Shown: one piece after another, positions 6,474-26,856 of the stretch
Position numbering within the stretch: the stretch's first letter is position 1
How the letters are laid out: each line of letters starts with the position of its first letter
From: Minisyncoccia bacterium
GTDB lineage: Bacteria > Patescibacteriota > Minisyncoccia > Phycocordibacterales > UBA918
NCBI GenBank assembly: GCA_041738755.1
Contig: JBGSPE010000005.1
Location: 207,872-271,871, forward strand
DNA: 64,000 bases
Direction: 5' to 3'
Notes under the pieces: generated by a model
Told to the model about the DNA's origin: nothing
The model's input: only the letters and a program-made list of their open reading frames with translations
Database searches by the model: none
Made by a program: the position numbers and the translations under genes

Positions 6474-6830
6474 ATGAGACACGCAAACAAAAACCGAACC
6501 CTCAGTCGACCCCGAAGTCAACGCACTGCTTTGATCCGCGGTTTGGCTGTGTCTCTCATCCGAGATGGACAAATCAAGACAACCTTTGCTAAGGCAAAAG
6601 AACTCCAACCACGAATCGAGCGTCTCGTTACTCACGCTAAGGCTGATACTGTAGCTGCACGACGGCTCGTAGCATCACGTCTTGGTGAACCAAAAGATAA
6701 CACGATCACTAAGCTTTTTACGGATATCGCACCACGATTCAAAGAACGAAATGGTGGCTACACCCGAGTCGTAAAGCTTGGTAACACCTCTCCTGGTCGA
6801 GAAGAGGCGATTATTGCTTTTGTTGAATAG
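6474..6830 (+). CDS. rplQ: ribosomal protein L17
   Basis: MRHANKNRTLSRPRSQRTALIRGL...; canonical position after rpoA. Confidence 0.93.
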   Translation: MRHANKNRTLSRPRSQRTALIRGLAVSLIRDGQIKTTFAKAKELQPRIERLVTHAKADTVAARRLVASRLGEPKDNTITKLFTDIAPRFKERNGGYTRVVKLGNTSPGREEAIIAFVE

Positions 6831-6832
6831 AT

Positions 6833-7204
6833 TTGTATATGAAAAAAGTAAACACCATCACCTCAACCTACACAATCGATGCCGCTGGCAAGCGTCTTGG
6901 TACTATTGCAACTGAAGCCGCATCAGTCTTGATTGGTAAGAACGACCCAAACTTTGCTCGTCACATCATGAGCGAAGTTCGAGTAGAAATTAAAAACGCC
7001 AGCAAGATGGACATCCCAGAAAAGAAGAAGTCTGAGATTTACCAAAGCTACTCAGGTTGGCCAGGAGGTCGGAAGACCGAAACGCTTATCCACCTCGCAG
7101 AACGAATTAGCTACGGGGAAGTAATGCAACGAACCATCGCTGGAATGCTTCCAAACAACAAGCACAAGAAGCGTCTCCTGCACAACTTATCAATCAGCGA
7201 ATAA
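6833..7204 (+). CDS. rplM: ribosomal protein L13
   Basis: TYTIDAAGKRLGTIATEAASVLIGKNDPNF... followed by rpsI, the conserved L13-S9 pair. Confidence 0.9.
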   Translation: MYMKKVNTITSTYTIDAAGKRLGTIATEAASVLIGKNDPNFARHIMSEVRVEIKNASKMDIPEKKKSEIYQSYSGWPGGRKTETLIHLAERISYGEVMQRTIAGMLPNNKHKKRLLHNLSISE

Positions 7205-7208
7205 TCGT

Positions 7209-7619
7209 ATGTCAGCTACTAAAAAATCAGTATACGTAGAAGGAATCGGTCGTCGTAAAACTGCGACAGCTCGAGTTCGTCTTACCCCAGCAAGCGAAAC
7301 AACGATTCTCGTCAACGACAAGAAGCTCACGGACTACTTTGGTAACCTTGGTCACCAAAAGGACGTGCAGTCAGTGCTTGATACCAAAGATGCAGGAATC
7401 GAAGACTACAGCATCACGGCTCATGTTTCAGGCGGTGGTATCTCATCACAAGCTGAAGCAATCCGACTTGGTATCGCTCGAGCCCTCGTGAAGGAAAAGG
7501 CAACTCGCCGAAGCCCACTGAAGGCCGGAGGATTCCTTATGCGAGATCCGCGTTCAGTAGAACGAAAGAAGTTTGGACTTAGGAAAGCTCGAAAGCGCCC
7601 AGCCTGGAGTAAGCGCTAA
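7209..7619 (+). CDS. rpsI: ribosomal protein S9
   Basis: C-terminus ...GGGISSQAEAIRLGIARAL...KAGGFLMRDPRSVERKKFGLRKARKRPAWSKR. Confidence 0.95.
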   Translation: MSATKKSVYVEGIGRRKTATARVRLTPASETTILVNDKKLTDYFGNLGHQKDVQSVLDTKDAGIEDYSITAHVSGGGISSQAEAIRLGIARALVKEKATRRSPLKAGGFLMRDPRSVERKKFGLRKARKRPAWSKR

Positions 7620-7650
7620 ATACAGGCACATTACTTCGTTGGCCTACGAA

Positions 7651-7697
7651 AAAAGACCCTTGCTGGACACCACGTCCCACTCGGGTCTTTTTTCTTG
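7651..7697 (+). terminator. rho-independent terminator after the ribosomal operon
   Basis: AAAAGACCC...GGGTCTTTTTTCTTG, a GC stem with a nested inner stem (GGAC/GTCC) and a U tract. Confidence 0.7.
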
Positions 7698-7753
7698 TCC
7701 GCCTCGTACTGCACTCTGTATTTAGCGCTTCCTAAACACTATTATTTTCAACG

Positions 7754-8053
7754 TTAGTTAGTATCTAAAAGCTTATATAATCTTTTCTTTAACTTTTCAG
7801 GCATAGATCCTGGAGCTTTATTTTGATTTTCATATCTTTTAAGTATTTGAATTTCATCATCTTTTTTACCTTCTTTGTTATATATAATTGCGAGCTGCTC
7901 ATAATACCAAGGAGCAACACCCCAGCCTTCCCGCTCATCTTCCATTTCAGTAGCTTCCACGCATTTTAATAAAATCTCAATCGCTTCAGTGTACTTACCA
8001 TCCTTTTTTAGTTTTTTGATTGTTTCTACGTATTTTACATAATCCATGTACAT
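7754..8053 (-). CDS. hypothetical small helical protein in a low-GC islet (possibly TPR-like)
   Basis: 99 aa, K/E-rich, with GWGVAPWYYEQLAIIYNKEG. The local GC is much lower than the flanks. TATAAT lies immediately upstream, so the likely start is the third Met and the mRNA leaderless. Confidence 0.45.
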   Translation of the reverse strand: MYMDYVKYVETIKKLKKDGKYTEAIEILLKCVEATEMEDEREGWGVAPWYYEQLAIIYNKEGKKDDEIQILKRYENQNKAPGSMPEKLKKRLYKLLDTN

Positions 8054-8290
8054 TAATTATACTCGATACTTTTAAAAGTTAATCATTGGTTACCTAAAGA
8101 AAATTAAAAACCTAAACGCCCGGCAGAGCCAAACATTTTTGGTAGTCCTTGTAGTGTACACAGGGTGAACCCTGATGCGATACGAAGAGGGTAATCCCAA
8201 CCATCGATGCAAGTGACTGAAATGCACAACTACAACGTAGAGGTTTTCATCGTGCCTATTTATTATATGCCTCTCCAATTTGTCGCAAAC

Positions 8291-8319
8291 TTTACAGTAC
8301 CTCTTTTTAGATTTATAAT
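8291..8319 (+). promoter_or_regulatory. sigma70-like promoter of grpE-dnaK (TTTACA-17-TATAAT)
   Basis: -35 at 8291-8296 and -10 at 8314-8319, which predicts a TSS at or near the grpE start codon (leaderless). I saw no CIRCE element. Confidence 0.6.
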
Positions 8320-8328
8320 ACTACTTGT

Positions 8329-8922
8329 ATGGTGAATGAAATAAATGATTTTGAAGATATTGACCTTGATGTCACCAACGAAGACAACCCTGAAGACCTT
8401 GAATTATTAGATGAAGAGCAAAGCGGAGCTGATAAAATTAAAGCCCTCCGCAAAAAACTAAGCGTCTGCGAATCAGAGAAAAAATCGATTCAAGATGACG
8501 CCCAACGAAGCAAAGCGGACTTCCTCAATGCCCGAAAAAGACTCGAGGAAGAACGTATTACTGACCGATTACGAGCCAAGAAGCAACACATCGAAGAGCT
8601 TTTACCCTTATGTGACAGTTTCGAGATGGCAATGAGTAATAAAGAAGCCTGGGAGAAGGCAGATGCAGCCTGGAGAAACGGCATAGAAGGCATTTTCAGC
8701 CAATTAAAGACCTTATTGGAAGGATATGGCGTTTCCATCCATTATCCACTTCACGAGGCCTTTAACCCTCACCAGCACGAAGCACTTGGTACTGAAGTAG
8801 TCACTGATAAGAAGAATCACGACAAAGTGATGAAGGTGATCCAAAGTGGCTATACGATTACCCAAGGAGGCAAGACCGAAACCATCAGACCAGCCCGCGT
8901 AATCATTGGAACGACTGAATAA
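8329..8922 (+). CDS. grpE: nucleotide exchange factor GrpE
   Basis: An acidic N-terminus and coiled coil, then a C-terminal GrpE domain (..LLPLCDSFEMA.., ..VMKVIQSGYTITQGGKTETIRPARVIIG). Confidence 0.9.
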   Translation: MVNEINDFEDIDLDVTNEDNPEDLELLDEEQSGADKIKALRKKLSVCESEKKSIQDDAQRSKADFLNARKRLEEERITDRLRAKKQHIEELLPLCDSFEMAMSNKEAWEKADAAWRNGIEGIFSQLKTLLEGYGVSIHYPLHEAFNPHQHEALGTEVVTDKKNHDKVMKVIQSGYTITQGGKTETIRPARVIIGTTE

Positions 8923-8945
8923 TTATTATTTAAACAACTACTAGT

Positions 8946-10844
8946 ATGGCAAAGATTTTAGGAATAGACCTTGGAACCACTAACTCTGCAATTGCAGTGA
9001 TTGAAGCTGGTGAACCGACTATTATTGAAAACCAAGAAGGAAATCGAACCACACCGTCAATTGTCGCCATCTCAAAGACAAATGAACGACTGGTCGGGCA
9101 AATTGCAAAGCGACAAGCAGTCACGAACCCAACCAATACCATCTATGGTATTAAACGATTCATGGGACACCTTTTCAGCGATGATGTGGTACACAAAGAC
9201 AAAGACATCGTCCCGTACGAAATTAAAGAGGGAAGTGACGGTGGGGTGATTGTTACGATGGATGGAAAGGATTATCGTCCAGAGGAAGTATCAGCGATGA
9301 TTCTTACTAAACTTAAGAATGATGCTGAAGCAAAACTTGGCGAGAAGATTACTGAAGCAGTTATTACTGTTCCGGCCTACTTCAACGACTCACAACGAAA
9401 GGCTACCCAAGATGCTGGAAAAATTGCTGGACTCGATGTAAAGCGAATCATTAACGAACCAACCGCAGCGGCGTTAGCCTACGGGTTCAATAAAAAGAAA
9501 GATGAGAAGATTGTCGTCTATGACTTCGGAGGCGGAACCTTCGACGTGTCTGTACTTGAGGTTGGAGATGATGTTATCGAAGTACAATCGACCGATGGAG
9601 ATGCACATATGGGTGGACGAGATATCGACCAGGGGATTGTCCGCTTCTTGATTGAAGAATTCAAGAAGAGTAATGGAGTAGATCTCTCAAAGGACAAGCT
9701 TGCTCTCCAGCGACTCGATGAAGCAGCTGAAAAAGCGAAGCATGAACTTTCTTCAACGACAGAAAGTAACATCAATATTCCATTTATCTCTCAAGGGAGT
9801 GACGGGCCGCTTCATATGGACCTCAAACTCACTCGAGCCAAACTCGAAGAGCTTTCACACGAGTTTGTTGATAAGTCGATTGAAATCACCAAGCGAGCAC
9901 TTGAAGCCTCAGGTCTTAAGAAAGAAGATATCGATGAAATTATTTTGGTTGGTGGACAGACTCGTATGCCAGCCGTACAAAACGCCGTAAAAGAACTCTT
10001 TGGTAAAGAACCAAATCGTTCTATCAACCCAGACGAAGTGGTAGCTCTTGGAGCCGCCATTCAAGCTGGTATCTTCCAGGGCGATGTCCAAGACATCACA
10101 CTCGTAGATGTGATTCCATTGTCTCTCGGTATCGAAACCATGGGAGGAGTAAACACAAAACTGATTGAAAAGAACACACATATCCCAACCAAGAAATCAC
10201 AAGTGTTCTCAACCGCTTCTGACAATCAAACCTCTACCATGATTCGCGTAGCGCAAGGTGAACGACCAATGTTCAACGACAACAAGGTACTCGGTGAATT
10301 CAACCTTGACGGTATTCCACCAGCACCGCGAGGAGTCCCGCAAGTTGAAGTAACGTTTGATGTCGATAGCAACGGCGTCTTGAAAGTTACCGCTAAAGAC
10401 AAAACGACTGGCAAGGAACAATCAATCCGGATTGAAGCCAGCTCAGGTCTCACCCCAGACGATATCGAACGAATGAAAAAAGAAGCTGAGGAACACGCAG
10501 CCGAAGATGAAAAAAAGAAAGAACTCATTGAGACACGCAACCAAGCTGAACAAATTACCTATACCGCCGAGAAAGCACTGAAGGATCACGAGAAAGAAGT
10601 TCCTGCTGACGTAAAGACTGAGATTGAAGATAAAATCAAAGCTGTCCGAGAAACTGCCGGGAAGGATGACAAGGGAGTAATTGAAACAGCGGTAGCTGAA
10701 CTCTCAACATCACTCCAAAAGATTGGTGAAATTATGCAAAAAGCTGCCGAAGATGCTTCCAAAGCACCCGGAGAAGGAACAAAAGAAGCTGAACCTACCG
10801 TTCATGAAGCAGACATGAATGACGATAAAGCAGATACGAAGTAA
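8946..10844 (+). CDS. dnaK: chaperone DnaK (Hsp70)
   Basis: 632 aa with [18 protein letters not shown] and [11 protein letters not shown], all canonical Hsp70 signatures. Confidence 0.98.
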
Positions 10845-10894
10845 AAAGTGTCCAAAGTGCAAAACCCTTCAGGTTTTGCACTTCCTGACACTTT
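10845..10894 (+). terminator. nested stem-loop after dnaK (terminator-like, weak U tract)
   Basis: An outer stem AAAGTGTC/GACACTTT encloses GTGCAAAACC-cttca-GGTTTTGCAC. Confidence 0.45.
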
Positions 10895-11079
10895 GTACTA
10901 CAATCCGACAAAGCAATTAGCCACTACAACTCCCATACTATGAACAAAGACTTAAATGAAGCAACGAGCAGTAAAACTGCGACTATGCTGAATTTATCCA
11001 GGCGCTTAGCATATTTCGACTTCCAGGGGAGAAATAGGCTGCAGCGAGCTGGGAGAGAACAATCAATTCAACTAACAAT

Positions 11080-12153
11080 ATGAACAAAGACTACTACCAA
11101 ATTCTAGGTCTCGAAAAGGGAGCCTCAAAAGACGAGGTAAAGAAGGCCTTCCGAAAGATGGCTGCCAAGTATCATCCAGACAAAGCTTCTGGAGATGAGG
11201 AAAAATACAAAGAAGTTACCGAAGCCTATGCGGTATTGGGTGATGATAAGAAAAAAGCCGAATACGATAGCTACGGCCATGCCTTTAATAATGGTGGCGG
11301 GGGAGCAGGGTTTGGTGGTTTCTCTTGGGGTGACTTCGCGCAACAAGCCGGTGGTTTCAGCGGGCAAGGCTTTGAATTCGATCTCAATGACATTTTTGAA
11401 AACTTTGGTTTCGGTGGTGGAGGAGTAAAAACCCGAAGGGGTAACGATGTCTCTATCGATATCAATCTCAATTTCACTGAATCAGTGTTTGGTGTTACCC
11501 GCAAAGTGCTTTTGACCAAGAACAATACCTGTACCTTCTGTACCGGGACGGGAGCCAAAGCTGGTACCGAAAAAGTCTCTTGCAACACCTGTGGTGGCAA
11601 CGGGAAGCTTCGCGAAACCAGACAAAGCATCATGGGTAGCTTCTCAACCGTACGTGAGTGTAGTGACTGTAATGGAACCGGGAAAGTACCAAAAGAAAAG
11701 TGTACTCACTGTAATGGAGCAGGTATCAGTCGCTCACAAAATGAAATCAGTATCAAAATCCCAGCCGGCATCCAAAACGGTGAAGTCATCCGCATGACTG
11801 GACAAGGCGAAGCTGTCTCAGGCGGTCAACCAGGCGACCTCTACATCAAGATACACGTTGAATCTCACGCCACTATCAGGCGAGAGGGGAGCACGCTTTC
11901 AAGCAATCTTCCTATCAAACTTACCGACGCACTCTTAGGTAATGTTTATCGGGTTGAAACCCTCGATGGTCCCGTTGAAATCAAGATTCCAGCTGGTATC
12001 TCTCATGGTGAACTTATCCGTATCAAGGAGAAAGGTGTCCCAACCGACCGTGGCCGCGGTGACTTCATGGTAAAGATATCTATTGAAGTCCCCAAGAAAC
12101 TCTCGCGTAAAGCACAGAAGCTTGTTGAAGAATTGAAGGAAGAGGGTATTTAA
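11080..12153 (+). CDS. dnaJ: chaperone DnaJ
   Basis: A J domain ([31 protein letters not shown]), a G/F region, and four CxxCxGxG zinc-finger repeats. Confidence 0.97.
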
Positions 12154-14455: not shown

Positions 14456-15271
14456 TTGCCTATGGCAAACAATCCACCTGACGAAAATTCTCATCAAAGA
14501 CTACAAAAATTCTTCACACCACTTGATTTAGCGGTTGAAGAAATTAAGCGTCGACAATTAGATACGGCTTTATTTAAAAAAGTTGAGGATTTTCTCGATG
14601 GTGATATACCAGAACATTTTGCTCAACCTGACCCAATATTTTATCTTTCTAGACACATTGCCACACCCAATTATGAAGCTCTACGCTTCGTTGAATTAGC
14701 AAAACCATATGGGTTACCAATGGTTATTGGTCAGGACAGCAAAGGTATTTTTGTTTCAAACAATGATCTGAAACGCCCCCTGGGAAAGCTACCTGTTACC
14801 AAAGGGGTATCTAGAAACCTTGACGAAATAGTTGAATATTTTACTATCGTTGACTTCACAGAACACCAAGGAAAACCATTTGCAGAAATTAAAACGAAGT
14901 TCGATAGAGACCTTGTTTCTTATCACAATGAGTTATTCCGGCAAATTTACCCTGTTGAGATGGAAATAGTTGATGAATCTGAATGGATTGATAGAAATCA
15001 CAGGGGAGATATTGTAGCTCAGTACAAAAAGATGCTGTCCTTACTCATTGTGCACGGCATCATGCTTGAATCCTATCCACCGCATGAACATGGCTTTGTA
15101 ACCAATGTACTGGAACCTGCTTATGACGAAGTATCAGAATATTTTGGAGTTAGACCATTAATTTCAGAACACATAGATAGTGACTTAGAAGAAACCCGGG
15201 ACTGGAATGGATACCCAAGTGTCTTGTACCAATTTCTCAAAAACGATACCGAGAAAAAGAAAGGTTCGTAG
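14456..15271 (+). CDS. hypothetical protein (first gene of the low-GC island)
   Basis: 271 aa; no recognisable motifs; GC drops sharply from here onward. Confidence 0.45.
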   Translation: MPMANNPPDENSHQRLQKFFTPLDLAVEEIKRRQLDTALFKKVEDFLDGDIPEHFAQPDPIFYLSRHIATPNYEALRFVELAKPYGLPMVIGQDSKGIFVSNNDLKRPLGKLPVTKGVSRNLDEIVEYFTIVDFTEHQGKPFAEIKTKFDRDLVSYHNELFRQIYPVEMEIVDESEWIDRNHRGDIVAQYKKMLSLLIVHGIMLESYPPHEHGFVTNVLEPAYDEVSEYFGVRPLISEHIDSDLEETRDWNGYPSVLYQFLKNDTEKKKGS

Positions 15272-15321
15272 TTTGTGTATAGAACCAAGATGGTACTTTA
15301 TTAAGTGATACAATTACCGTA

Positions 15322-15639
15322 ATGAAGTTGAAAAACATTCTACTAACCAGTGCAGTTGTGCTGTTTTTGGCAATCAGTATTGGAGCAACATATTATAAAA
15401 TGGTAGTTCTTCAAGATTTTGAGACAACTGGTATCTGGCTAGAATTTGTAGAGGAAGAATCAACCTATGTTTTCTTTGTCTATGAAAACGTCGAGTATGA
15501 ACTTGAGTTAGAAACGACTGATTATAATCTTATATTACTAAGTATTTCAGATGAAGTTGGCATACCAGTAGCTGATTTAGATCCAGACTTTCTTGAATAC
15601 CTTCAAGGTTCTTACGAAGAAGCCAGTTCATCAGAATAA
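15322..15639 (+). CDS. small secreted/anchored acidic protein
   Basis: An N-terminal hydrophobic signal or anchor (LLTSAVVLFLAISIGA) and an acidic C-terminal half. Confidence 0.45.
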   Translation: MKLKNILLTSAVVLFLAISIGATYYKMVVLQDFETTGIWLEFVEEESTYVFFVYENVEYELELETTDYNLILLSISDEVGIPVADLDPDFLEYLQGSYEEASSSE

Positions 15640-15643
15640 ACAT

Positions 15644-16243
15644 ATGAAAAAACCACAAATCTACTCATGGATGAATCCATCGCTAACAATTAAACGAACT
15701 GACCGGTATGGTAGTGCAGATTTGCCGACAATTAAAAACGGAAAAAAAACATATTCCAAGAAAAAAGGTTTAGGTTTTGCGGTATTTGCAAACAAAAAGA
15801 TTAAAAAAGATGAAGTTCTGTTTGTTATGGGTGGTTATGTTTTAACAATCGAAGATGAAAACGAACTATCAGGTATCGTCGCTGATAAACCTATCGAAAT
15901 TTCTGAAAAATTTTCAATAGGGCCACGTAAACCATCCGATATAGAAAAAATGCCTCAACATTATGTTAATCATAGCTGTAACCCTAACGCTGGATTCAAC
16001 GGACAAGTGTTTATGGTGGCTATGAAAAACATAAAAGCTCATGAAGAAATTGTTTATGACTATGCAATGATTATGCACACAAACAGTAAGAGTAATAGTT
16101 TTTTCACATTTGAGTGTTTATGTGAAAGTAAGGATTGTCGTAAAAAAATTGGAGAGAACGATTGGAAAATTAAAGACTTACAAAACAAGTATGACGGTTA
16201 TTTCCAGTACTATTTACAGGAAAAAATTAATAGACTTAAATAA
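15644..16243 (+). CDS. SET-domain protein (putative protein lysine methyltransferase)
   Basis: GLGFAVFANKKIKKDEVLF; the NHSCNPN motif; EEIVYDY; a post-SET CLCESKDCRKK. The likely start is ATG 15644, in frame with the track ORF. Confidence 0.7.
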   Translation: MKKPQIYSWMNPSLTIKRTDRYGSADLPTIKNGKKTYSKKKGLGFAVFANKKIKKDEVLFVMGGYVLTIEDENELSGIVADKPIEISEKFSIGPRKPSDIEKMPQHYVNHSCNPNAGFNGQVFMVAMKNIKAHEEIVYDYAMIMHTNSKSNSFFTFECLCESKDCRKKIGENDWKIKDLQNKYDGYFQYYLQEKINRLK

Positions 16244-16245
16244 TT

Positions 16246-17901
16246 ATGGAAACCTTAACTTGTTTAGATTCTGAAGCTACCTTGTTTGGAATTTTTGACC
16301 CAAGTATCGCACCACTACTTTTATATTATGCCTACGTTCCTATATCTATCATTTCAATATTTTTGGGTATCTTAGTACTTGTAAATAGAAAAAAATTCTC
16401 ATTACCAAACGTAAGTTTCTTCGCTCTTACAATTCTATACAGTTTGTACCTTATAAATGAAATTATTCAATGGATAGCTGTTCCCGCTGGATTAGTGAAT
16501 TTTGGTTGGGAAATGATTGCATTGTACTTTACATCAATATCAATGAGCCTCTTCTACTTTGTCTATACATTTATTGAAGAGAAGGATTTGTCTAGTAAGT
16601 TGAAACTAATCATCTTTGCATTATTTGCTCCGATAATTCTATTTTTACCAACTAGTTTAAATGTTAAGGGCTTTGACCTGGCAATCTGTCAAGCTGAAAT
16701 TGGCAATGGTTACCTATATGTTTATTTTATAATTATTCTCTCAATAGTCGGAATAATTGCCGTCTGTATTAAAAATTACTTGAAGGACAAAAAAGTATCT
16801 ACTATTTTATTGATGCTTGGATCTGTTTCGATGCTTCTTGTGTTGCTATTTGCTGACTTGGTGAGTGAGTACCTAGGAACTTTTGAATTCAACCTTATTG
16901 GTCCAGTTGGTATGCTTCTTTTTATGACAATCATTACGTATATGATTGTTACGTATAAGGCCTTTGATATCAAGGTGGCCGGAGCGCAAGCACTTGTATT
17001 TGCATTAATTATTTTGATTGCCTCACAACTACTCTTCGTGCGCTCAGCGACTAGTCAGATCCTAATTACAATTACGCTTATTATTTCTATCTTAGGCGGT
17101 TATTTCTTAGTAAAAAGTGTTAAGCGTGAAATACAACAACGAGAGCAAATTGAATCGCTAGCCAAAAACCTGGCCAAAGTAAATACGCGACTTAAAGAAC
17201 TCGACAAGCAGAAGTCTGAATTCGTTTCTATTGCCTCACACCAGCTCCGCAGTCCATTAACCGCAATCCGCGGTTACGCTTCGATGGTTATCGAAGGGAG
17301 CTATGGTCAAATTCCAGAGAAAGCCAAGGAATCACTTATGAGAATTGAAGAATCGGCCAAGCTGATGGCAATGTCTGTAGAGGACTACCTCAATGTGTCT
17401 CGAATTGAGTCTGGTAACATGAAGTATGTTTACAGTGACTTTAACCTTAACGAATCAGTCAGCAAAATATGTGACGACCTTCGTCCCGAAGCTATGAAGC
17501 GAAGTCTTATCCTCCTTAACCGTAGCGATATCAAGGGTCGCGGCATTGTTTATGCAGACGTAGGTAAGACACACCAAATCATCCACAACCTCATTAATAA
17601 CTCAATTAAATACACCCAGAAGGGGAGCATTTCAGTTTTTGTCCGTGATGACCTTATCAAGAAGCGTATTTATATCGATATCACTGACACCGGTATTGGC
17701 ATGAGTGAAAAGACCCAACACACTATCTTCCAAAAGTTTGAACGGGCTGAAAACGCTAACAGTGTAAATATTTCTGGTACTGGACTCGGACTCTACGTAG
17801 CTCACAAGATGGCTGAGCAAATGGGCGGTAATATCACCGCGTTCTCTGAAGGTGACGGTAAGGGCTCTCGCTTCACCATCGAATTACCACTAGCGATGTA
17901 A
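16246..17901 (+). CDS. sensor histidine kinase with multi-TM N-terminal domain
   Basis: About 7 TM helices, then HisKA (FVSIASHQLRSPLTAIRGY) and HATPase_c (GTGLGLYVAHKMAEQMGG). No response regulator is adjacent. Confidence 0.8.
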   Translation: METLTCLDSEATLFGIFDPSIAPLLLYYAYVPISIISIFLGILVLVNRKKFSLPNVSFFALTILYSLYLINEIIQWIAVPAGLVNFGWEMIALYFTSISMSLFYFVYTFIEEKDLSSKLKLIIFALFAPIILFLPTSLNVKGFDLAICQAEIGNGYLYVYFIIILSIVGIIAVCIKNYLKDKKVSTILLMLGSVSMLLVLLFADLVSEYLGTFEFNLIGPVGMLLFMTIITYMIVTYKAFDIKVAGAQALVFALIILIASQLLFVRSATSQILITITLIISILGGYFLVKSVKREIQQREQIESLAKNLAKVNTRLKELDKQKSEFVSIASHQLRSPLTAIRGYASMVIEGSYGQIPEKAKESLMRIEESAKLMAMSVEDYLNVSRIESGNMKYVYSDFNLNESVSKICDDLRPEAMKRSLILLNRSDIKGRGIVYADVGKTHQIIHNLINNSIKYTQKGSISVFVRDDLIKKRIYIDITDTGIGMSEKTQHTIFQKFERAENANSVNISGTGLGLYVAHKMAEQMGGNITAFSEGDGKGSRFTIELPLAM

Positions 17902-17926
17902 GTATAATTTCAAATAAATATTTTTA

Positions 17927-18502
17927 ATGTTCAATCTAAACGAAAAAATTGTTTTATTTGACACAGAATATACTGCTTGGGAGGGTAGTCGAGAACGTGG
18001 CTGGAGTAAGTCGAATGAGTATAAGGAAATTGTACAAATTGGTGGGATTATTCTAGAAACGCAGAACTTCACAGAAGTTTCTTGTTTTAATGTGTATGTT
18101 AAGCCGGTTCTTAATCCAATTCTGTCTGACTATTTTATAAATCTTACGGCCATTACTCAGGAGCTTGTTCAGAGTAGAGGGATTGATTTAATGTCAGCTT
18201 ATACTCGATTTGTTGATTGGAGTGCTGGAATAGACTCGTACTCCTTCGGACATGACGAAAAAGTAATTATCGAAAATTTTGGTTTACTCAATTTAAGTGC
18301 AAATTTTGAAACTCAGAGATTTTTCAACGCTAGAAATTTGTTTGAGGAAAATAATATCGATACCTCAAATTATAATAGTGGTAATATAATTGAGTACTTT
18401 GGAAAACAAGCTACGTTACGGGCACATGATGCTCTCAATGATAGCCGTATCATTGCAGATGCTCTAAGAGAAATGGTCTTAAATTCCAATAAGTTTAGGT
18501 AA
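17927..18502 (+). CDS. DEDDh 3'-5' exonuclease (DnaQ-like)
   Basis: Exo I LFDTEYT, with H and D in Exo III (HDALNDS). Confidence 0.65.
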   Translation: MFNLNEKIVLFDTEYTAWEGSRERGWSKSNEYKEIVQIGGIILETQNFTEVSCFNVYVKPVLNPILSDYFINLTAITQELVQSRGIDLMSAYTRFVDWSAGIDSYSFGHDEKVIIENFGLLNLSANFETQRFFNARNLFEENNIDTSNYNSGNIIEYFGKQATLRAHDALNDSRIIADALREMVLNSNKFR

Positions 18503-18545
18503 TTTGTGTTAAAATAGAAACCTAGATTTAAATCTATTAAATAAC

Positions 18546-19412
18546 ATGCAATTCGGGCTGATCGGCGGGGAGGATATAGAAAAGTACAGTATTGCCGACA
18601 GAATCTGGTCTATTATCTTATCTCAACATGATACCATTTCATATTTTTCATACTACCCAACTGTCAAAAAGAGTGACGTCTGTAGATTGCTTGAAAAAGT
18701 GCGCAGCTCTGAGATTGAGGGATTTAACGTTGCTCTTCCATGGAAGTCAGCAGTTGCAGAATATTGTGATTTCAAGTCCCCGGTAGTTGAAATGACTGGT
18801 TTTGCAAATGTTGTTTACTCGGAAAGTGGTAAATTGATTGCCGATAATACTGATGGGGTGGGATTTATTGCAGGACTAAAGAAAATTCCTAAAAGCGCTT
18901 TAATTTATGGAGCTGGCGGAGCAGGAGTTGTACTTGCCTATGAACTTTCAAATCTCGGCTCAAGTGTCACAATTGTTGACGTAGATAATGAAAAAATAAT
19001 CTACTTCAATGAAAAGTGTGCAAACTGGCAAAATGCTGATCTTGTTATCGCAAGAGACTCAGATTCAATTGAATTGACTTCGTTTGAAATGGTAGTTAAT
19101 GCAACCCCGTTAGGTAAGAAAAACCATGTATCTAGTGAAAGCTCGGTATCGTATAATAATCAGTCACCGATTCCTTCAGGTCATATAAGTGCTTTTAAGA
19201 AAGGGACTTTATTTGCCGAAATGAATTACTACCCTTTAAAAACTAAATTCATTGATGATGCAGAATCTCATGGAATGGAAATTCAGTTTGGAATAGTAAT
19301 GCTATTTCATCAAGCTGCTAAAACTTACGAGTTATATTCAGGTAAAAAGACTGCGGCTCCAATAAATTTTAATAAACTTTATTTAGACATTTTTAGTTTA
19401 AATAAAGACTAA
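18546..19412 (+). CDS. shikimate/quinate dehydrogenase (AroE) family protein
   Basis: GFNVALPWKSAV and NTDGVGF with a Rossmann GAGGAG match the AroE family pattern. Confidence 0.55.
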   Translation: MQFGLIGGEDIEKYSIADRIWSIILSQHDTISYFSYYPTVKKSDVCRLLEKVRSSEIEGFNVALPWKSAVAEYCDFKSPVVEMTGFANVVYSESGKLIADNTDGVGFIAGLKKIPKSALIYGAGGAGVVLAYELSNLGSSVTIVDVDNEKIIYFNEKCANWQNADLVIARDSDSIELTSFEMVVNATPLGKKNHVSSESSVSYNNQSPIPSGHISAFKKGTLFAEMNYYPLKTKFIDDAESHGMEIQFGIVMLFHQAAKTYELYSGKKTAAPINFNKLYLDIFSLNKD

Positions 19413-19572
19413 GTTTGGTATTGAAAGACAAATAAATCAATCAGAGAATCTACAAGATACAGAAAGGGAATACAGACTCAAATATAAAGGTTCTAAAGAT
19501 TGGTTCTTTTGTCCTGAGTCAATCATCAGTGAACAAACCAACGACCTAGAAGGACAGCTTAGTCATATTGAA

Positions 19573-20541
19573 ATGCCTGCATTTGGGGTTAATGTATTCA
19601 CTGACTCAGACAGGCTTTTTGAACAGATTAATCAGTTCAATGGTTTTTATCAGTCCGAACAATCAGTGGTGGATGGTAAAAAACTTTTTTACATCACAGA
19701 CAAATCAAATGTACCACCACTGCCAAACCCATTGGGTGGTGTTGGTTTAGTAGAGATGTCCTCAGAACCGGCAGACGTACTTTGTGACCCCTTATCAGGT
19801 TCTTATGTAATTAATTGTTGGGACAGGTTTACTTCGATGGAAAGCTTAGTGCTCGGTATACGGAGTTTTGATAATTTGCGTAAGGGTAAATTAGGTATGC
19901 ACGCTGCTCTTATAGAGAAAGATGGCCAGGGGTATATATTGATAGGGAAACCAAAGACAGGCAAAACAACGATCTCGATGTCCCTGGCTGCTCAAGGGTT
20001 TAAACTAATCAGTGACGATTGGGTAGAGGTTGAGAAGAGTGACAGAGAATTTATGGCCTCTGGAACTAATCCTTCTGTTTCCTTAGATCAGCAAACGTTA
20101 TCCATGCTTCAGTCTCAGTATGAGCAATATCACGATGTAGAGTCAATGGGTTTTTCATCGTACGGTAAGCAAATCATGCCAATAAGTAATATAAATAATG
20201 TTTGGAGCCCAAAACAACAAATACCTGTTCGGAAAGTCTTTATTTTAGATAATAACAGTACTGACTCAGAGCCGGTAAATAGTGAGTATTTTTCAGACTT
20301 ACTAAAAATCACTGATCCTCATACTCCGTTTATGAATACTCCAGAAGGTTCAGGTGTGCGGACAGTAAGTGGTATTTCAGATGAGATCAGGTATGGAATA
20401 CAACATATTACTGATTCACAAAACCAAAGACAATACTTGGCTGAAGAATTTGTAAAAAGTGGTTCACATAGTGTTCAAAAATTTAGAAATAAGGACTACA
20501 CGCTAGAAGAAGCTATAGCACATATAAGAAATCAAATATGA
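19573..20541 (+). CDS. HprK C-terminal-like P-loop kinase domain protein
   Basis: GMHAALIEKDGQGYILIGKPKTGKTTISMSLAAQGFKLISDDWVEV aligns with HPr kinase ([23 protein letters not shown]...LVADDRVEI). The in-frame upstream extension has no start codon. Confidence 0.55.
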   Translation: MPAFGVNVFTDSDRLFEQINQFNGFYQSEQSVVDGKKLFYITDKSNVPPLPNPLGGVGLVEMSSEPADVLCDPLSGSYVINCWDRFTSMESLVLGIRSFDNLRKGKLGMHAALIEKDGQGYILIGKPKTGKTTISMSLAAQGFKLISDDWVEVEKSDREFMASGTNPSVSLDQQTLSMLQSQYEQYHDVESMGFSSYGKQIMPISNINNVWSPKQQIPVRKVFILDNNSTDSEPVNSEYFSDLLKITDPHTPFMNTPEGSGVRTVSGISDEIRYGIQHITDSQNQRQYLAEEFVKSGSHSVQKFRNKDYTLEEAIAHIRNQI

Positions 20542-21461
20542 AAATATTAATTACTGGCTCATCTGGTTTAATTGGTGGATTTATTTATTCGCATTTAAAC
20601 TCCAACCATTCACTTCTCGGTATTGATATTATTAATTCGGAGACTACTGATAAATTAGTTGATATTACAGATAAAGATTGCCTAAAGAATATTCTAGATG
20701 AATTTGAGCCAGATATGGTGATTCATGTTGCTGCTCAGAAAGACTTAATTCAGTGTGAAGAAAACAAGGCTGAAACATGGTGCTCTAATGTTAATCCATT
20801 GAGCATAATAACTGACTATCTCTCACAAAAAACCGGTAAATTAATATATATATCATCAGATATGGTATTTGATGGTACTAAAGGTAATTATACGGAAGAA
20901 GACCCTACGTGCCCAATCAATTGGTATGGTGCAACTAAGGTAGCTGGTGAACTTATACCGGTTATACGAATGGCGGAGAACTCGATTTCAATACTACGAA
21001 CAGCGCAAGTCTTCGGTCCGGTTACTGAAGCTTTAATTCACTATGTAAACGTAAAAATTGACTGCGATACAATGACTAATCAAAGTGCTTTGCCCTTATT
21101 TATTAAAATGAGACTTTCGAGGGGTTTGCCGGTAGTATTGCCGAATAATGTCACTTCATCGCCTACACCTGTAACGTTGATTGCTGATGTTGTGAATAAA
21201 ATAATTGAAAATGGAGTAGGCACAGGTCTCCTGCATGTTGCTGGGACAGAGTCTTACAGTAGATTTGAGCTTGGTCGACAGATTGCTGAACTATTAGAAC
21301 TCCCGAAAGACCTTATTGTTCACGGTGTAGATGCCACTACACATCTCAGGCCACATGACTTGTCTATGAATGTTAATAAGTTGGAGAAATTATTTAATAT
21401 CAAAAAAACAGAGTACGATATTTTAAAATACATTAAACAACAAATTTATTATGCACAATAA
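20538..21461 (+). CDS. NAD(P)-dependent epimerase/dehydratase or reductase (SDR, RmlD-like)
   Basis: ILITGSSGLIGG and YGATK (YxxxK). Its start overlaps the upstream stop (ATGA). Confidence 0.7.
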   Translation: MKILITGSSGLIGGFIYSHLNSNHSLLGIDIINSETTDKLVDITDKDCLKNILDEFEPDMVIHVAAQKDLIQCEENKAETWCSNVNPLSIITDYLSQKTGKLIYISSDMVFDGTKGNYTEEDPTCPINWYGATKVAGELIPVIRMAENSISILRTAQVFGPVTEALIHYVNVKIDCDTMTNQSALPLFIKMRLSRGLPVVLPNNVTSSPTPVTLIADVVNKIIENGVGTGLLHVAGTESYSRFELGRQIAELLELPKDLIVHGVDATTHLRPHDLSMNVNKLEKLFNIKKTEYDILKYIKQQIYYAQ

Positions 21462-22158
21462 GTATTTTGAACAATTGAACGCACTCTTCTTGTATCTTGA
21501 TGAAGTTTTACCTAAAAAAATTACAGCCACTTTTATCCATGGATCATTTGCATCTCGTACTGAAACCTCAGCAATTTATCAAGAACAGATGTTCTACTTT
21601 GACAATGGAACTTTTTGGTTTTCAGTCTTGCATTTACAAGATATACCTCCTGACGTCGATATAATAACTGTAACAGACTACCCTGAAGAGGTTTTGGATG
21701 TGGTGCAAGAAAGTGCAAAGAAATATCTTGATGAGACATTTTTTCTAACCCTCAACATCATAACTTCAAGCGAATATGAAAGAATTGTATCTTCCAACGA
21801 TGCTTTAGCGCCAAAAAGGTTACTTGTAAAAAAGATGCTAAATGTTCTAAAGGGCGAAGATTACATAAATAAACTGAAATCTACAGCAATTAAAAACTAC
21901 AATGATTTAGACGATACTATTCAAACTGAGTTTGATAAGAAGAAACTACTCCTTAATGAACTGGCTTCAAAAAGTGTAAGTCATCATGTGCTTACTAGAG
22001 AGTACTACACTCAGCATTATCCAAATCTTTTAGATGAAATGGATGGCGTGCGAGTCGGTGGCTTTAACGTTGATCGTGTAAAGTTAGTCTATCCACAGTC
22101 AATGAATCTAAAGTGTAGGGTGGATATTAAAGATTATTCAGTAAAGTATCTAGAATAA
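21451..22158 (+). CDS. putative nucleotidyltransferase-fold protein
   Basis: IHGSFAS ... DVDII resembles the hG[GS]...DhD motif of pol-beta-like NTases, with atypical spacing. Low confidence. Overlaps the upstream gene by 11 nt. Confidence 0.35.
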   Translation: MHNKYFEQLNALFLYLDEVLPKKITATFIHGSFASRTETSAIYQEQMFYFDNGTFWFSVLHLQDIPPDVDIITVTDYPEEVLDVVQESAKKYLDETFFLTLNIITSSEYERIVSSNDALAPKRLLVKKMLNVLKGEDYINKLKSTAIKNYNDLDDTIQTEFDKKKLLLNELASKSVSHHVLTREYYTQHYPNLLDEMDGVRVGGFNVDRVKLVYPQSMNLKCRVDIKDYSVKYLE

Positions 22159-22161
22159 GTT

Positions 22162-23340
22162 ATGCGTATAGCTGTTATTTGTAGACCTGATGTTCCGGTT
22201 CCTCCATACGAAGGGTATGGAGGTCTTCAGCGTAATATATTCGACTTCATAGAAGAATTAGGTAAACGTAATATTGAAGTTGCATTGTTTGCTTCTCTAG
22301 ATTCTAATGTCTCAAAATTAAAAAACGTCACCCTTTACGGCTCACTAAAGTCGGCATTATGGTCAGATCTCGTAGTAAACAAAGATTTTAAGTCAAAAAC
22401 TAAAGAACAAATTGCAATTCAAGCTGAGGCTAATAAAAAGCTGGAGGCCGAGTTTGTCGACTATATTGTTAATGAACTTGCTAATATTAGAGCAGATATT
22501 ATTTTTGTTGCGTACGATAATTTAGATCTACTTTCGAGGTTACAAGGTGGTATGTACAAAAATAAAATTGTTTGGTCGCTGAGAGACAACTTAAACGTAG
22601 AAAAGATCAGCTTTATAAAATCACATCCAGAAATTTTCATGACAGGTATGGCTGATCATATAGAAATTGAACTTCACTCAATTGATAATGTACATACTAT
22701 AATTTGGGGTATTAACCCTAATCTTTATGAATTTTCTCCATACTGTCTGACTAAGACTGATGAAGTACCGAGTCTTCAAATACTTAAGAGTATGCAAGCT
22801 AGGGGTCAAGATTATCTAGTAATGGTTTCAGGTATTGGTCAACACAAGGGTCAATTAACTGCTATAAAAATCGCAAAAGAAAATAACCTGGCATTAATTT
22901 TGGCGGGCACCCCGCAGGATCATCTGACTCTCAAAAAAACGGATTATTTTAAAAACGAGATTGAACCTTTGCTGACAAATGATATTATTCATTTTGGGAA
23001 TGCGAATGAGGTTCAAAAGACTGAATTATTGCGCTATGCAAAAGCTACTTTGGTGCCGTCAGGTTTTGAGTTTAAAGAGTTCAAAGAGCCTTTTGGTAGA
23101 GTAGTGGCTGAGTCCTTTGCTTGTGGGACTCCTGTAATTGCATATAGACACGGCTCACTTCAATTCATTGTGGAGGATAAAAAAGTTGGTTTTTTATTTG
23201 ATACATTCGATGATGCTGTGTATGCAACTCAAAAGATAGATTCAATTAATCGTTGGGAAGTTAGAAAATACTTAGAAAATACACTATCTATTAAGCGGGT
23301 AGTAGATGAGTATATAGTTTTGTTTAATAATATAATTTAA
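22162..23340 (+). CDS. glycosyltransferase family 4 (GT-B)
   Basis: EPFGRVVAESFACGTPVIA, the GT4 E-x7-E region. Confidence 0.7.
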   Translation: MRIAVICRPDVPVPPYEGYGGLQRNIFDFIEELGKRNIEVALFASLDSNVSKLKNVTLYGSLKSALWSDLVVNKDFKSKTKEQIAIQAEANKKLEAEFVDYIVNELANIRADIIFVAYDNLDLLSRLQGGMYKNKIVWSLRDNLNVEKISFIKSHPEIFMTGMADHIEIELHSIDNVHTIIWGINPNLYEFSPYCLTKTDEVPSLQILKSMQARGQDYLVMVSGIGQHKGQLTAIKIAKENNLALILAGTPQDHLTLKKTDYFKNEIEPLLTNDIIHFGNANEVQKTELLRYAKATLVPSGFEFKEFKEPFGRVVAESFACGTPVIAYRHGSLQFIVEDKKVGFLFDTFDDAVYATQKIDSINRWEVRKYLENTLSIKRVVDEYIVLFNNII

Positions 23341-23345
23341 TAGTT

Positions 23346-23954
23346 ATGGATTTAGAAATATTTGAACAAGTTAGAGCTGATTTAAAAGAAATTTTTCCAC
23401 CTGAAACTGATGAGCCGAGATTTCGATACGTTAAACAGACTTGGATATTTCCAAATCATTTTGATATAACTGTCCGCTTCGCAAAACAATTAGCAGAAAA
23501 ATATAACGCTGATGTTCAAGTGTGCATGCTTGCAGCTTTGCTACATGATGCAGGTCTGGCATACAAACGAGATCGAGCAGATTCTATTGGCCATGAGGAA
23601 CGTAGTGTTGAGTATGTATATGAGTTCCTACCAAAATATGGTTATGATGCTGACACAGTAAAAGCTGTCGCTGATTCTGTTATTGCTACTGAACCGAAGG
23701 CCGAAGTCACTACTATTGAAGCAAAGGTCGTACGTACTGCTGATGCTCTGGCACACATACAATCGGTACATTACCTTGCAAAAGCTGTTTTTAGCCCAAC
23801 CTGGGACGACGCCATTGCATTTGTTGAACGTAAAGTACATGCTGATTACGATAAAATATGTTTTGAGGATGAACGACTAAAGATTGCGCCAATTTACAAT
23901 TATTTTGTCTCAATTATTGAACAATACAAAGGAAATAATATAATTAATTTATAA
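23346..23954 (+). CDS. HD-domain phosphohydrolase
   Basis: H...LLHDAG...D; last gene of the tight five-gene operon. Confidence 0.6.
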   Translation: MDLEIFEQVRADLKEIFPPETDEPRFRYVKQTWIFPNHFDITVRFAKQLAEKYNADVQVCMLAALLHDAGLAYKRDRADSIGHEERSVEYVYEFLPKYGYDADTVKAVADSVIATEPKAEVTTIEAKVVRTADALAHIQSVHYLAKAVFSPTWDDAIAFVERKVHADYDKICFEDERLKIAPIYNYFVSIIEQYKGNNIINL

Positions 23955-24000
23955 GAAAAATCCTATTCTGTTTTAACTGTAATTGTAATTTTTATACAGT

Positions 24001-26370: not shown

Positions 26371-26856
26371 ATGGATACAACATTTTTGAAACAAGAGCTG
26401 ATTCGTGACTTAAGCAGTATTGATGCTGAAGACATACTTTCAGAGTGGGAATGGCTGTTGGAAGAAAAAATGGAGCTAGTTCTTGTATCCAGTATTGGAG
26501 ATATGTTCCTAAAAAATACTAAAGGGGAAATATTTTTACTAGACACACTTGGTGGTGAACTCAAGCGTGTTGCTGACTCCGAAAATGACTTCGCAGAACT
26601 ACTTACACACAAAGAAAAGCAAGAAGAGCTTCTATCAAGGACGTTTGTAGAAACACTAATTGAAAGCGGTAAGACATTGTCTCCAACAGAGATTTATAGT
26701 TTTATGGTCTTGCCAGTTCTAGGAGGCGACTTCACACCTGAAAATATCGAGCCCACTGACATATCAGTCCATTTTTCAATGACAGGCCAAATCCATAAGC
26801 AAGTACACGATCTTCCTGACGGAACTGAAATAGATGGCGTAGTTTTGGAATCTTAA
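26371..26856 (+). CDS. hypothetical protein (possible Tdi1/DUF1851-like immunity domain)
   Basis: IGDMFLKNTKGEIFLLDTLGGELKRVADSENDF resembles the GDxF..G..hhLD motif of DUF1851. This is a recollection, not verified. Confidence 0.35.
   Translation: MDTTFLKQELIRDLSSIDAEDILSEWEWLLEEKMELVLVSSIGDMFLKNTKGEIFLLDTLGGELKRVADSENDFAELLTHKEKQEELLSRTFVETLIESGKTLSPTEIYSFMVLPVLGGDFTPENIEPTDISVHFSMTGQIHKQVHDLPDGTEIDGVVLES

Follow-up and report, generated by a model that had tools for sequence, protein, structure and literature searches.

The 64,000-nt window analysed here, part of contig JBGSPE010000005.1 of a Minisyncoccia bacterium, carries on its + strand a compact gene cassette that has so far been seen only in bacteria of the Candidate Phyla Radiation (CPR, or Patescibacteria). 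Our favoured reading, to which we assign a probability of roughly 0.42, is that of a horizontally mobile CPR cassette for the activation and tailoring of a sugar, or else of a polyol or cyclitol resembling one, on a phosphate or nucleotide handle. Its recurring set of genes, a kinase, a nucleotidyltransferase-like (NTase-like) protein, one or two sugar oxidoreductases and a hydrolase, sometimes with glycosyltransferases (GTs) and once with GmhA, appears to match the logic of the nucleoside diphosphate (NDP)-heptose, Leloir and AmgK/MurU pathways. The gene set, its conservation, the selection acting on it, the family and fold assignments and the retention of catalytic residues are observed here, and we infer the substrate, the order of the steps and the role of each enzyme. 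All coordinates are window positions unless they are assigned to one of the homologous loci on other contigs, L001-L021.

Gene content and conservation of the cassette

An operon of five tightly spaced, co-directional genes at 19573-23954 had been described in the original prediction, and the list of open reading frames (ORFs) bears this out. On the + strand it places a P-loop kinase probably of the HprK/PEPCK fold (19573-20541), an RmlD-type extended short-chain dehydrogenase/reductase (SDR; 20538-21461), the NTase-like protein, here called ORF3 (21451-22158), a GT of family 4 (GT4; 22162-23340) and an HD-domain phosphohydrolase (23346-23954), joined in this order by overlaps of 4 and 11 nt and by gaps of 3 and 5 nt. 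The unit itself, however, comprises six or seven genes. A gene for an NAD(P) oxidoreductase of the shikimate dehydrogenase fold (SDH-like; 18546-19412, + strand) belongs to it; every full-length context keeps this gene, and it ends 7 nt before the kinase gene if the latter starts at an ATT codon at 19420. Each gene is under purifying selection, with dN/dS values of 0.08-0.23 between the window and L004, and none of the seven proteins from RNase_T through HD contains a hydrophobic segment.

The genes do co-occur in other genomes. In the close contexts retrieved, the order is SDH-like, kinase, RmlD-like, ORF3, GT4 and HD. Saccharimonadia contigs carry the cassette between different flanks at 42-95% amino acid identity, and the identity of the individual genes to those of the window falls in parallel, from 83-95% in L004 to 58-86% in L005 and 42-61% in L001/L006. 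The latter locus belongs to a metagenome-assembled genome of Candidatus Saccharimonadia, in which the cassette has an extra GT2 gene and sits among ribosomal and translation genes. Several loci (L002, L003, L007, L013-L015) are fragments with unchanged order, L017 repeats the order kinase, SDR, ORF3, GT4 at 35-40% identity, and scans of genome contigs and of metagenome contigs returned one locus each. Because the same genes occur in the same order on independent contigs with unrelated flanks (L001-L005, L007, L013-L015 and L017), each gene being under purifying selection, the arrangement is not due to chance. A different order is found in L018, where ORF3, kinase, RmlD-like, SDH-like and HD genes are present at 29-36% identity and a GT gene is missing. 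Since this locus keeps all five without a GT, the conserved core consists of these five enzymes, and GT4, which is absent from both L018 and L008, is accessory to it.

In more diverged sister cassettes, ORF3 homologues of L008, L009/L010 (a Dojkabacteria genome) and L011/L012 each directly precede an unannotated protein of ~330 aa. By hhalign this protein is homologous to the kinase at a probability of 93.5% (E 2.3e-07), the two having the TD, H, P-loop, SDDWxE and SYGK motifs in common; after it comes a NUDIX hydrolase. The oxidoreductases of the sister cassettes are an FAD-dependent sugar-1,4-lactone oxidase resembling DprE1, a GFO_IDH_MocA protein resembling UDP-GlcNAc 3-dehydrogenase, and a GMC-family protein. 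The order of the Dojkabacteria cassette (L009 6125-12526) is GmhA, FAD sugar-lactone oxidase/DprE1-like, ORF3-like, kinase-like, NUDIX, GT2 and GT4; its GmhA scores 208.7 bits against a cut-off of 209.45, and its two terminal GT genes are unrelated ones. In all loci compared, the kinase gene adjoins ORF3 or lies near it, and this pair is older than the cassette. Scans of viral contigs revealed no relative of the kinase, and the alignment of ORF3 was too diverged to build a search pattern for them. Further NUDIX and Ham1-like fragments were seen downstream of the L009 sister cassette.

The kinase

The assignment of the first gene of the predicted operon as HprK-like is supported by profile, PDB and fold matches, and no unrelated P-loop family matches the protein better. 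The string GKPKTGKTT...LISDDWVEV, quoted in support of that assignment, is indeed found in the ORF at 19573-20541. As in HprK/P (TIGR00679, PF07475), a Walker A P-loop is preceded by a catalytic His and followed by a DD motif; the segment GMHAAL...GKPKTGKTT...LISDDW aligns to the HprK structures 3tqf and 1jb1, and the family profile aligned with HprK/P chains of the PDB over the same His, P-loop and DD segment. All top 24 PDB matches that Foldseek returned for an AlphaFold2 (AF2) model of low quality (pLDDT 47) were HprK/P, with PEPCK next; the AF2 models of the kinase and of ORF3 were made from 5-6 close homologues and are both poor. Among eight diverged homologues the invariant residues include H161, G176, G181, K182, D199, D200, W201, E203, F245, G249 and K250.

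The likeness to HprK and ScmC is, however, restricted to ~60 residues around the P-loop, and the full HprK C-terminal catalytic domain is not recovered at curated cut-offs. Hpr_kinase_C (PF07475) matches with 32.3 bits against a Pfam cut-off of 33.3 and covers only profile positions 8-62 of 171, so that the C-terminal HprK signature is unmatched. Moreover, unlike HprK/P, the protein has a different N-terminal half with an RGSKDWxxCP extension, and no phosphotransferase system (PTS) context was seen. The best-scoring curated profiles are those of ScmC (TIGR04249/PF27840) and the HprK-related A/B families (TIGR04352, TIGR04355), and ScmC is also the precomputed, weak Pfam label. All NCBIfam matches (HprK_rel_A 4e-11, ScmC 2e-10, hpr-ser 1e-07, HprK_rel_B 2e-06) nevertheless fall far under their cut-offs, with 31.4 bits against 240 for TIGR00679, and 40.6, 42.5 and 27.1 bits against 125, 200 and 200 for TIGR04249, TIGR04352 and TIGR04355, respectively. 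The family is very rare, with five clusters among 5.8 billion proteins.

All homologues of the kinase are 360-376 aa long and have ~51 additional N-terminal residues with the motif R-x-K-[YF]-[RK]-G-S-K-D-W-x-x-C-P. The window encodes this extension in frame and free of stops from 19420 onwards, where an ATT codon takes the place of the ATG found in L004, L005 and L007. Because these 51 codons, which precede the first ATG (19573), are conserved without disruption and have a dN/dS against L004 (0.21) like that of the remainder of the gene (0.16), the kinase most likely starts at ATT 19420, giving a protein of 373 aa (19420-20541) instead of the 322 aa of the called ORF. ATT is a permitted start codon in translation table 11. 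A very recent loss of the N-terminus or start codon is suggested as the alternative.

ORF3

The protein encoded at 21451-22158 has no match in Pfam, NCBIfam, PHROGs, PADLOC or the PDB and belongs to no curated family, and its earlier description as NTase-like finds its support at the family level. An exhaustive profile search among 1.84 billion proteins yielded 35 representatives, and an alignment of 29 sequences shows near-invariant residues at H30, G31, S32, D68, D70, T100, N102, K122, D154, K165, F205, R209 and K211. H30-G31-S32 and D68-x-D70, which correspond to the hG[GS] and [DE]h[DE]h motifs of Pol-beta-type NTases, are kept in at least 90% of these sequences and are separated by an unusually long spacer of ~35 residues. 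Twelve of the 29 members match Pfam Polbeta (PF18765) at 1e-4 to 0.1 (best 9.6e-05), all under the cut-off of 26.9 bits, and the match spans both motifs in the homologue P0019. Profiles of ORF3 found nothing among PDB sequences, and Foldseek on the AF2 model (pLDDT 41) returned only noise without a significant match. The strand expected to bear the third Pol-beta carboxylate carries the conserved T100-x-N102, and D154 is the only other near-invariant acidic residue. Taken together, motifs and profiles make ORF3 a probable, highly diverged NTase of the Pol-beta fold.

The two oxidoreductases

The SDH-like protein matches the aroE profile TIGR00507 at 4.3e-39 with 134 bits, against a cut-off of 200, and its best PDB matches include AroE (3don, 1.2e-20) and 5-ketofructose reductase (7cok, 3.4e-18). 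In the alignment it keeps K65, D102, N59, N86, Y215 and Q244 of Escherichia coli AroE; K65 and D102 lie in its NVALPWK and DNTDG motifs, and the catalytic Lys/Asp pair is thus retained together with the Rossmann domain. The site that binds the shikimate carboxylate is lost, with S14-x-S16 replaced by K-Y-S next to a 2-residue deletion and T61 by Ala. Shikimate is an unlikely substrate of such an altered pocket, and we rejected a genuine shikimate-pathway AroE on the loss of this motif. The sequence G-G-[ED]-x-[IL]-x-K-Y-S-[IV]-A, which replaces AroE HSKSP (window 18570-18600; gene at L018 5428-6309), persists even where identity drops to 36% and might be used to mark the subfamily. The gene adjoins the kinase in L001-L005 and L014 and is also present in L018.

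The second oxidoreductase (20538-21461) had been called an SDR epimerase and is more exactly an RmlD-type reductase, probably of a nucleotide-linked keto-sugar. It matches RmlD_sub_bind (PF04321) at 2.7e-42 with 145 bits against a cut-off of 27, its translation contains the GxxGxxG (ITGSSGLIGG) and YxxxK (YGATK) motifs, and its PDB matches are RmlD (2ggs, 4.6e-26) and MAT2B. Orthologues are found in L017 (41%) and L018 (36%). Its score against the rmlD equivalog TIGR01214 (3.4e-36, 124.8 bits) is under the cut-off of 224, and none of the cassette genes encodes RmlA, RmlB or RmlC; for these two reasons a genuine RmlD of a rhamnose operon was rejected.

Glycosyltransferase, HD and RNase_T genes

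The GT4 and HD assignments of the original prediction both stand above threshold. GT4, a retaining-type GT of the GT-B fold, matches Glycos_transf_1 (PF00534) at 7.7e-20 with 71.6 bits against a cut-off of 26.4, and it has orthologues in L001, L004, L005 and L017. Its nearest PDB relatives are the glucosylsucrose synthase TeGSS (7fg9/8x3q, ~6e-25), tetrahydrobiopterin glucosyltransferase (BGluT), sucrose-phosphate synthase (SPS), BshA and MshA (PMC9909042). These nearest solved relatives all glycosylate small soluble acceptors, although the likeness lies mostly in the donor-binding C-terminal domain (residues 216-391) and the acceptor domain is uninformative. The EPFGRVVAES...GTPVIA region aligns to TeGSS. 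For MshA and SPS, the phosphorylated acceptor is later dephosphorylated by a phosphatase, which parallels the combination of kinase, GT4 and HD in the cassette.

The HD protein matches PF01966 at 2.5e-11 (44.3 bits against 22) and HDIG TIGR00277 with 28.7 bits against 27.6, contains LLHDAG and the H...HD...D metal ligands of a metal-dependent phosphohydrolase, and has a PDB match to 2pq7 (7e-06). It is the most conserved gene of the cassette, with 95, 86 and 61% identity in the close relatives and 31% in the L018 orthologue, and NUDIX takes its position in the sister cassettes. The HD gene is also found alone at L020 8097-8725 and L021 3474-4102, at 89.7% nucleotide identity to window 23325-23953. 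There it adjoins tiny ORFs and a Y1 transposase of the IS200/IS605 type, and the rest of the cassette is absent.

Upstream of the cassette, at 17927-18502 on the + strand, lies a gene for an RNase_T/KapD-like DEDDh 3'-5' exonuclease (Pfam RNase_T 2e-09; dN/dS 0.16). It is likewise found upstream in L004 and L005 and is absent from L001, L018 and L009. This gene is accessory and is co-inherited with the cassette only in its closest relatives.

Proposed pathway and alternatives

In the proposed pathway, the HprK/PEPCK-fold kinase would phosphorylate a hydroxyl of the substrate, and ORF3, with its putative Pol-beta fold, would use an NTP to act on the resulting phosphate ester and give a nucleotide-linked sugar. 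The SDH-like and RmlD-type enzymes may then carry out an oxidation and a keto-reduction of the activated sugar, with a net epimerisation or reduction. In the Saccharimonadia version, the soluble GT4 would transfer the sugar to an acceptor. HD, or NUDIX in the sister cassettes, might cleave a phosphate or nucleotide ester, either as a GmhB-like dephosphorylation or for the release or turnover of the nucleotide-sugar. RmlD-family enzymes act on nucleotide-linked keto-sugars, which would imply a nucleotide-linked intermediate. The SDH-like protein keeps its Lys/Asp pair and loses its carboxylate site, and a reductase of a neutral keto-sugar (7cok) is among its best matches; both observations favour the sugar pathway. 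Furthermore, NDP-heptose pathways follow the logic isomerase, kinase, phosphatase, nucleotidyltransferase, GT, and the Dojkabacteria cassette seems to reproduce it. The route that had been proposed for the five genes, phosphorylation, nucleotidylation, tailoring and transfer, is thus consistent with the comparative evidence, especially with the sister cassette headed by GmhA, and is retained as a proposal.

A narrower claim concerns the kinase and ORF3. It is possible, if doubtful, that they form a previously unrecognised two-enzyme module, spread across CPR classes, in which a sugar hydroxyl is phosphorylated and then nucleotidylated, or the phosphate serves as the site of a transfer. Such a module would replace anomeric sugar kinases and RmlA-type pyrophosphorylases by non-orthologous enzymes and would provide the first small-molecule substrate for the HprK branch of the fold.

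Several observations weigh against the sugar-activation pathway. No HprK-fold kinase and no Pol-beta-fold NTase is known to act on sugars or sugar phosphates. The fold assignment of ORF3 rests on sub-threshold profile matches and two motifs, structure prediction having failed, and the third acidic residue usual in Pol-beta NTases is not evident in its alignment. A 4,6-dehydratase, which normally precedes RmlD, is absent from the cassette, and GmhA is confined to the Dojkabacteria variant. That NUDIX can take the place of HD is easier to reconcile with nucleotide hydrolysis than with a GmhB-like sugar phosphatase, and the solitary HD genes of L020 and L021 indicate that HD may not be committed to the pathway. 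Finally, the only characterised HprK homologues outside the PTS phosphorylate serines of peptides (PMC8498205).

This last point leads to an alternative which we consider unlikely: a macromolecule would be phosphoglycosylated, as happens to the lasso peptide pseudomycoidin. In that case, the only one in which a pair of this kind has been characterised, the C-terminal Ser is phosphorylated by an HprK homologue and the phosphate receives one or two hexoses through an NTase (PMC8498205). In the cassette, the kinase would phosphorylate a protein, peptide or wall polymer at a hydroxyl of Ser/Thr or of a glycan, ORF3 would add a sugar to the phosphate and GT4 would extend the glycan, while the two oxidoreductases would make a special NDP-sugar donor and HD or NUDIX would clear nucleotide by-products or reverse the mark. 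The peptide-associated families ScmC and HprK_rel_A are the best profiles of the kinase, and the constant proximity of its gene to ORF3 likewise favours this reading. However, the likeness of the kinase to HprK and ScmC does not extend beyond the P-loop segment, ORF3 has no match to NTase families beyond the weak one to Polbeta, the GmhA of the sister cassette would have no role, and two loci (L018 and L008) lack the GT. Moreover, no lasso cyclase, protease/B protein, PqqD-like gene or small ORF is conserved across the loci.

Improbable in our view is a tailoring of nucleosides, nucleotides or RNA ends, in which ribose, in a nucleotide or at an RNA terminus, takes the part of the "sugar", the kinase, NTase-like and HD/NUDIX proteins phosphorylate, nucleotidylate and hydrolyse it as writers and erasers, and the oxidoreductases modify a ribose hydroxyl. 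Pol-beta-fold and HD domains are classic pairs of this kind, as in the CCA-adding enzyme, GlnD and RelA/SpoT. The NUDIX proteins of the sister cassettes best, if weakly, resemble MutT and RNA pyrophosphohydrolases, HD weakly matches the HD domains of RNase Y and Cas10, and the RNase T-like exonuclease is co-inherited in the closest relatives. However, neither L001 and L018 nor the sister cassettes have that exonuclease, no RNA-binding or ligase domain was found, and the RmlD-type, SDH-type, GFO/IDH/MocA, GMC, FAD-lactone-oxidase, GmhA and GT proteins all point to free or NDP-linked sugars.

Least credible is island cargo for defence or xenobiotic inactivation, with kinase, NTase and GT inactivating an antibiotic like APH, ANT and GT enzymes or acting against phage: Pol-beta NTases and kinases are well established as modifiers of antibiotics, the island around the cassette is low in GC, the L004 counterpart of the cassette stands beside a serine recombinase and a Gabija-like OLD-TOPRIM/UvrD pair and the L018 core adjoins an ApeA-domain protein, but the core genes have no PADLOC matches save generic HD-to-Cas10/Cas3 and DEDDh similarity, their PHROGs matches are those of generic sugar enzymes only, homologues were not found in viral contigs, such a role leaves little place for two dedicated sugar oxidoreductases and for GmhA, and in L001 the cassette has ribosomal and translation genes as neighbours.

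Relation to known systems and significance

The putative sugar-activation cassette shares features with several characterised systems and belongs to none of them. With the lasso-peptide pair of a paeninodin-type kinase and an NTase in the pseudomycoidin cluster it shares the combination of an HprK-fold kinase with an NTase-type protein and a sugar chemistry that proceeds via a phosphate ester (PMC8498205). Unlike that cluster, all loci lack a lasso cyclase, leader peptidase, recognition element of RiPPs (peptides made on the ribosome and modified after translation) and precursor peptide, and the CPR cassette adds two NAD(P) oxidoreductases and HD or NUDIX; the kinases themselves are alike only over the ~60 residues that take in the His, the P-loop and the DD motif. 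None of the loci shows the lasso/RiPP or PqqD surroundings that the original prediction had brought up. A RiPP or lasso system was rejected because there is no maturase or precursor, no lasso Pfam family in the loci and no small ORF conserved between them. Radical-SAM/SPASM, PqqD-like or paralogous-kinase partners were likewise not found among the called genes of L001-L005, L008-L011, L017 and L018.

The NDP-heptose (GmhA, HddA/HldE, GmhB, HddC/HldE), Leloir and AmgK/MurU salvage pathways have the same step logic, and a genuine GmhA heads the Dojkabacteria cassette. In contrast to the NDP-heptose enzymes, the kinase probably adopts the HprK/PEPCK fold instead of a GHMP, PfkB or APH one, the NTase resembles Pol-beta and not RmlA/GlmU, and the hydrolase is HD or NUDIX and not HAD. 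Only GmhA is homologous, and only in that sister cassette; the likeness is thus one of logic and not of membership. The combination of a dehydrogenase or oxidase with an RmlD-type reductase also recalls epimerisation by DprE1/DprE2, by the GDP-heptose C4 oxidase/reductase or by RmlD-type enzymes, and a sister cassette has a DprE1-like FAD oxidase. The oxidising partner in the window differs in being an SDH-fold protein with a modified pocket, and no 4,6-dehydratase or 3,5-epimerase accompanies it. The proteins also fall outside HprK/P proper, ScmC, HprK-related A/B, the lasso kinases and the AroE and RmlD equivalogs. We would class the cassette with the nucleotide-sugar-type pathways, as a variant that draws on non-canonical enzyme families. 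In the literature, we found no paper that links HPr-kinase homologues with Patescibacteria/Saccharibacteria or sugar pathways and none that describes the cassette, and public sources leave its proteins nameless or "hypothetical".

CPR bacteria live as episymbionts and have minimal genomes; little is known of their surface glycans or scavenging pathways. Since such minimal genomes keep the cassette under purifying selection and exchange it horizontally, it probably matters for the cell surface or for the use of host-derived sugars. If the kinase/NTase pair activates sugars, two enzyme families would be added to carbohydrate biochemistry, one without a curated model and the other known only for the phosphorylation of serines in proteins and peptides, and proteins that annotation pipelines leave "hypothetical" would gain a function. 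Moreover, the cassette exemplifies a probable ATT start codon as well as a non-orthologous displacement between HD and NUDIX inside one conserved module.

Genomic island and neighbouring genes

The cassette is part of a 9.5-kb island (14456-23954) with a GC content of 0.36, compared to 0.445 and 0.449 in its flanks. These are housekeeping regions with DnaJ and EamA genes upstream and LD-carboxypeptidase, TrpRS and AspRS genes downstream. Nucleotide homology to L004 (88.5%) spans exactly 17939-23955, from RNase_T to HD, between unrelated flanks, and L004 has a GC content of 0.34-0.37 along its full length. The GC contrast, the exact homology block shared with low-GC L004 and the unrelated flanks point to a recent horizontal acquisition of the cassette from a low-GC relative. 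No flanking direct or inverted repeats suggestive of att sites were detected. Promoter and terminator scans were uninformative, Rfam families, riboswitches among them, all stayed under their gathering scores across the 64 kb, and ARAGORN found no tRNA gene in the window.

Directly after the L004 cassette, positions 6797-12120 of that locus encode a large serine recombinase, a UvrD-family helicase and an OLD-family AAA_15/TOPRIM nuclease, the last two forming a Gabija-like pair, which suggests a variable or defence island. Convergent to the five-gene core, L018 encodes at 7097-10527 an ApeA_NTD1-domain protein and a protein of >900 aa without a family. The upstream half of the island in the window (14456-17901) encodes a 271-aa protein without a family, a membrane-anchored acidic protein of 105 aa, a SET-domain protein (15593-16243) and a sensor histidine kinase of the seven-transmembrane type (16246-17901), and none of these genes is common to L004 or L005. 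Just outside the island, between TrpRS and AspRS, a gene at 26371-26856 encodes a 161-aa protein with the C-terminal domain of the type VI secretion system immunity protein Tdi1 (9e-15).

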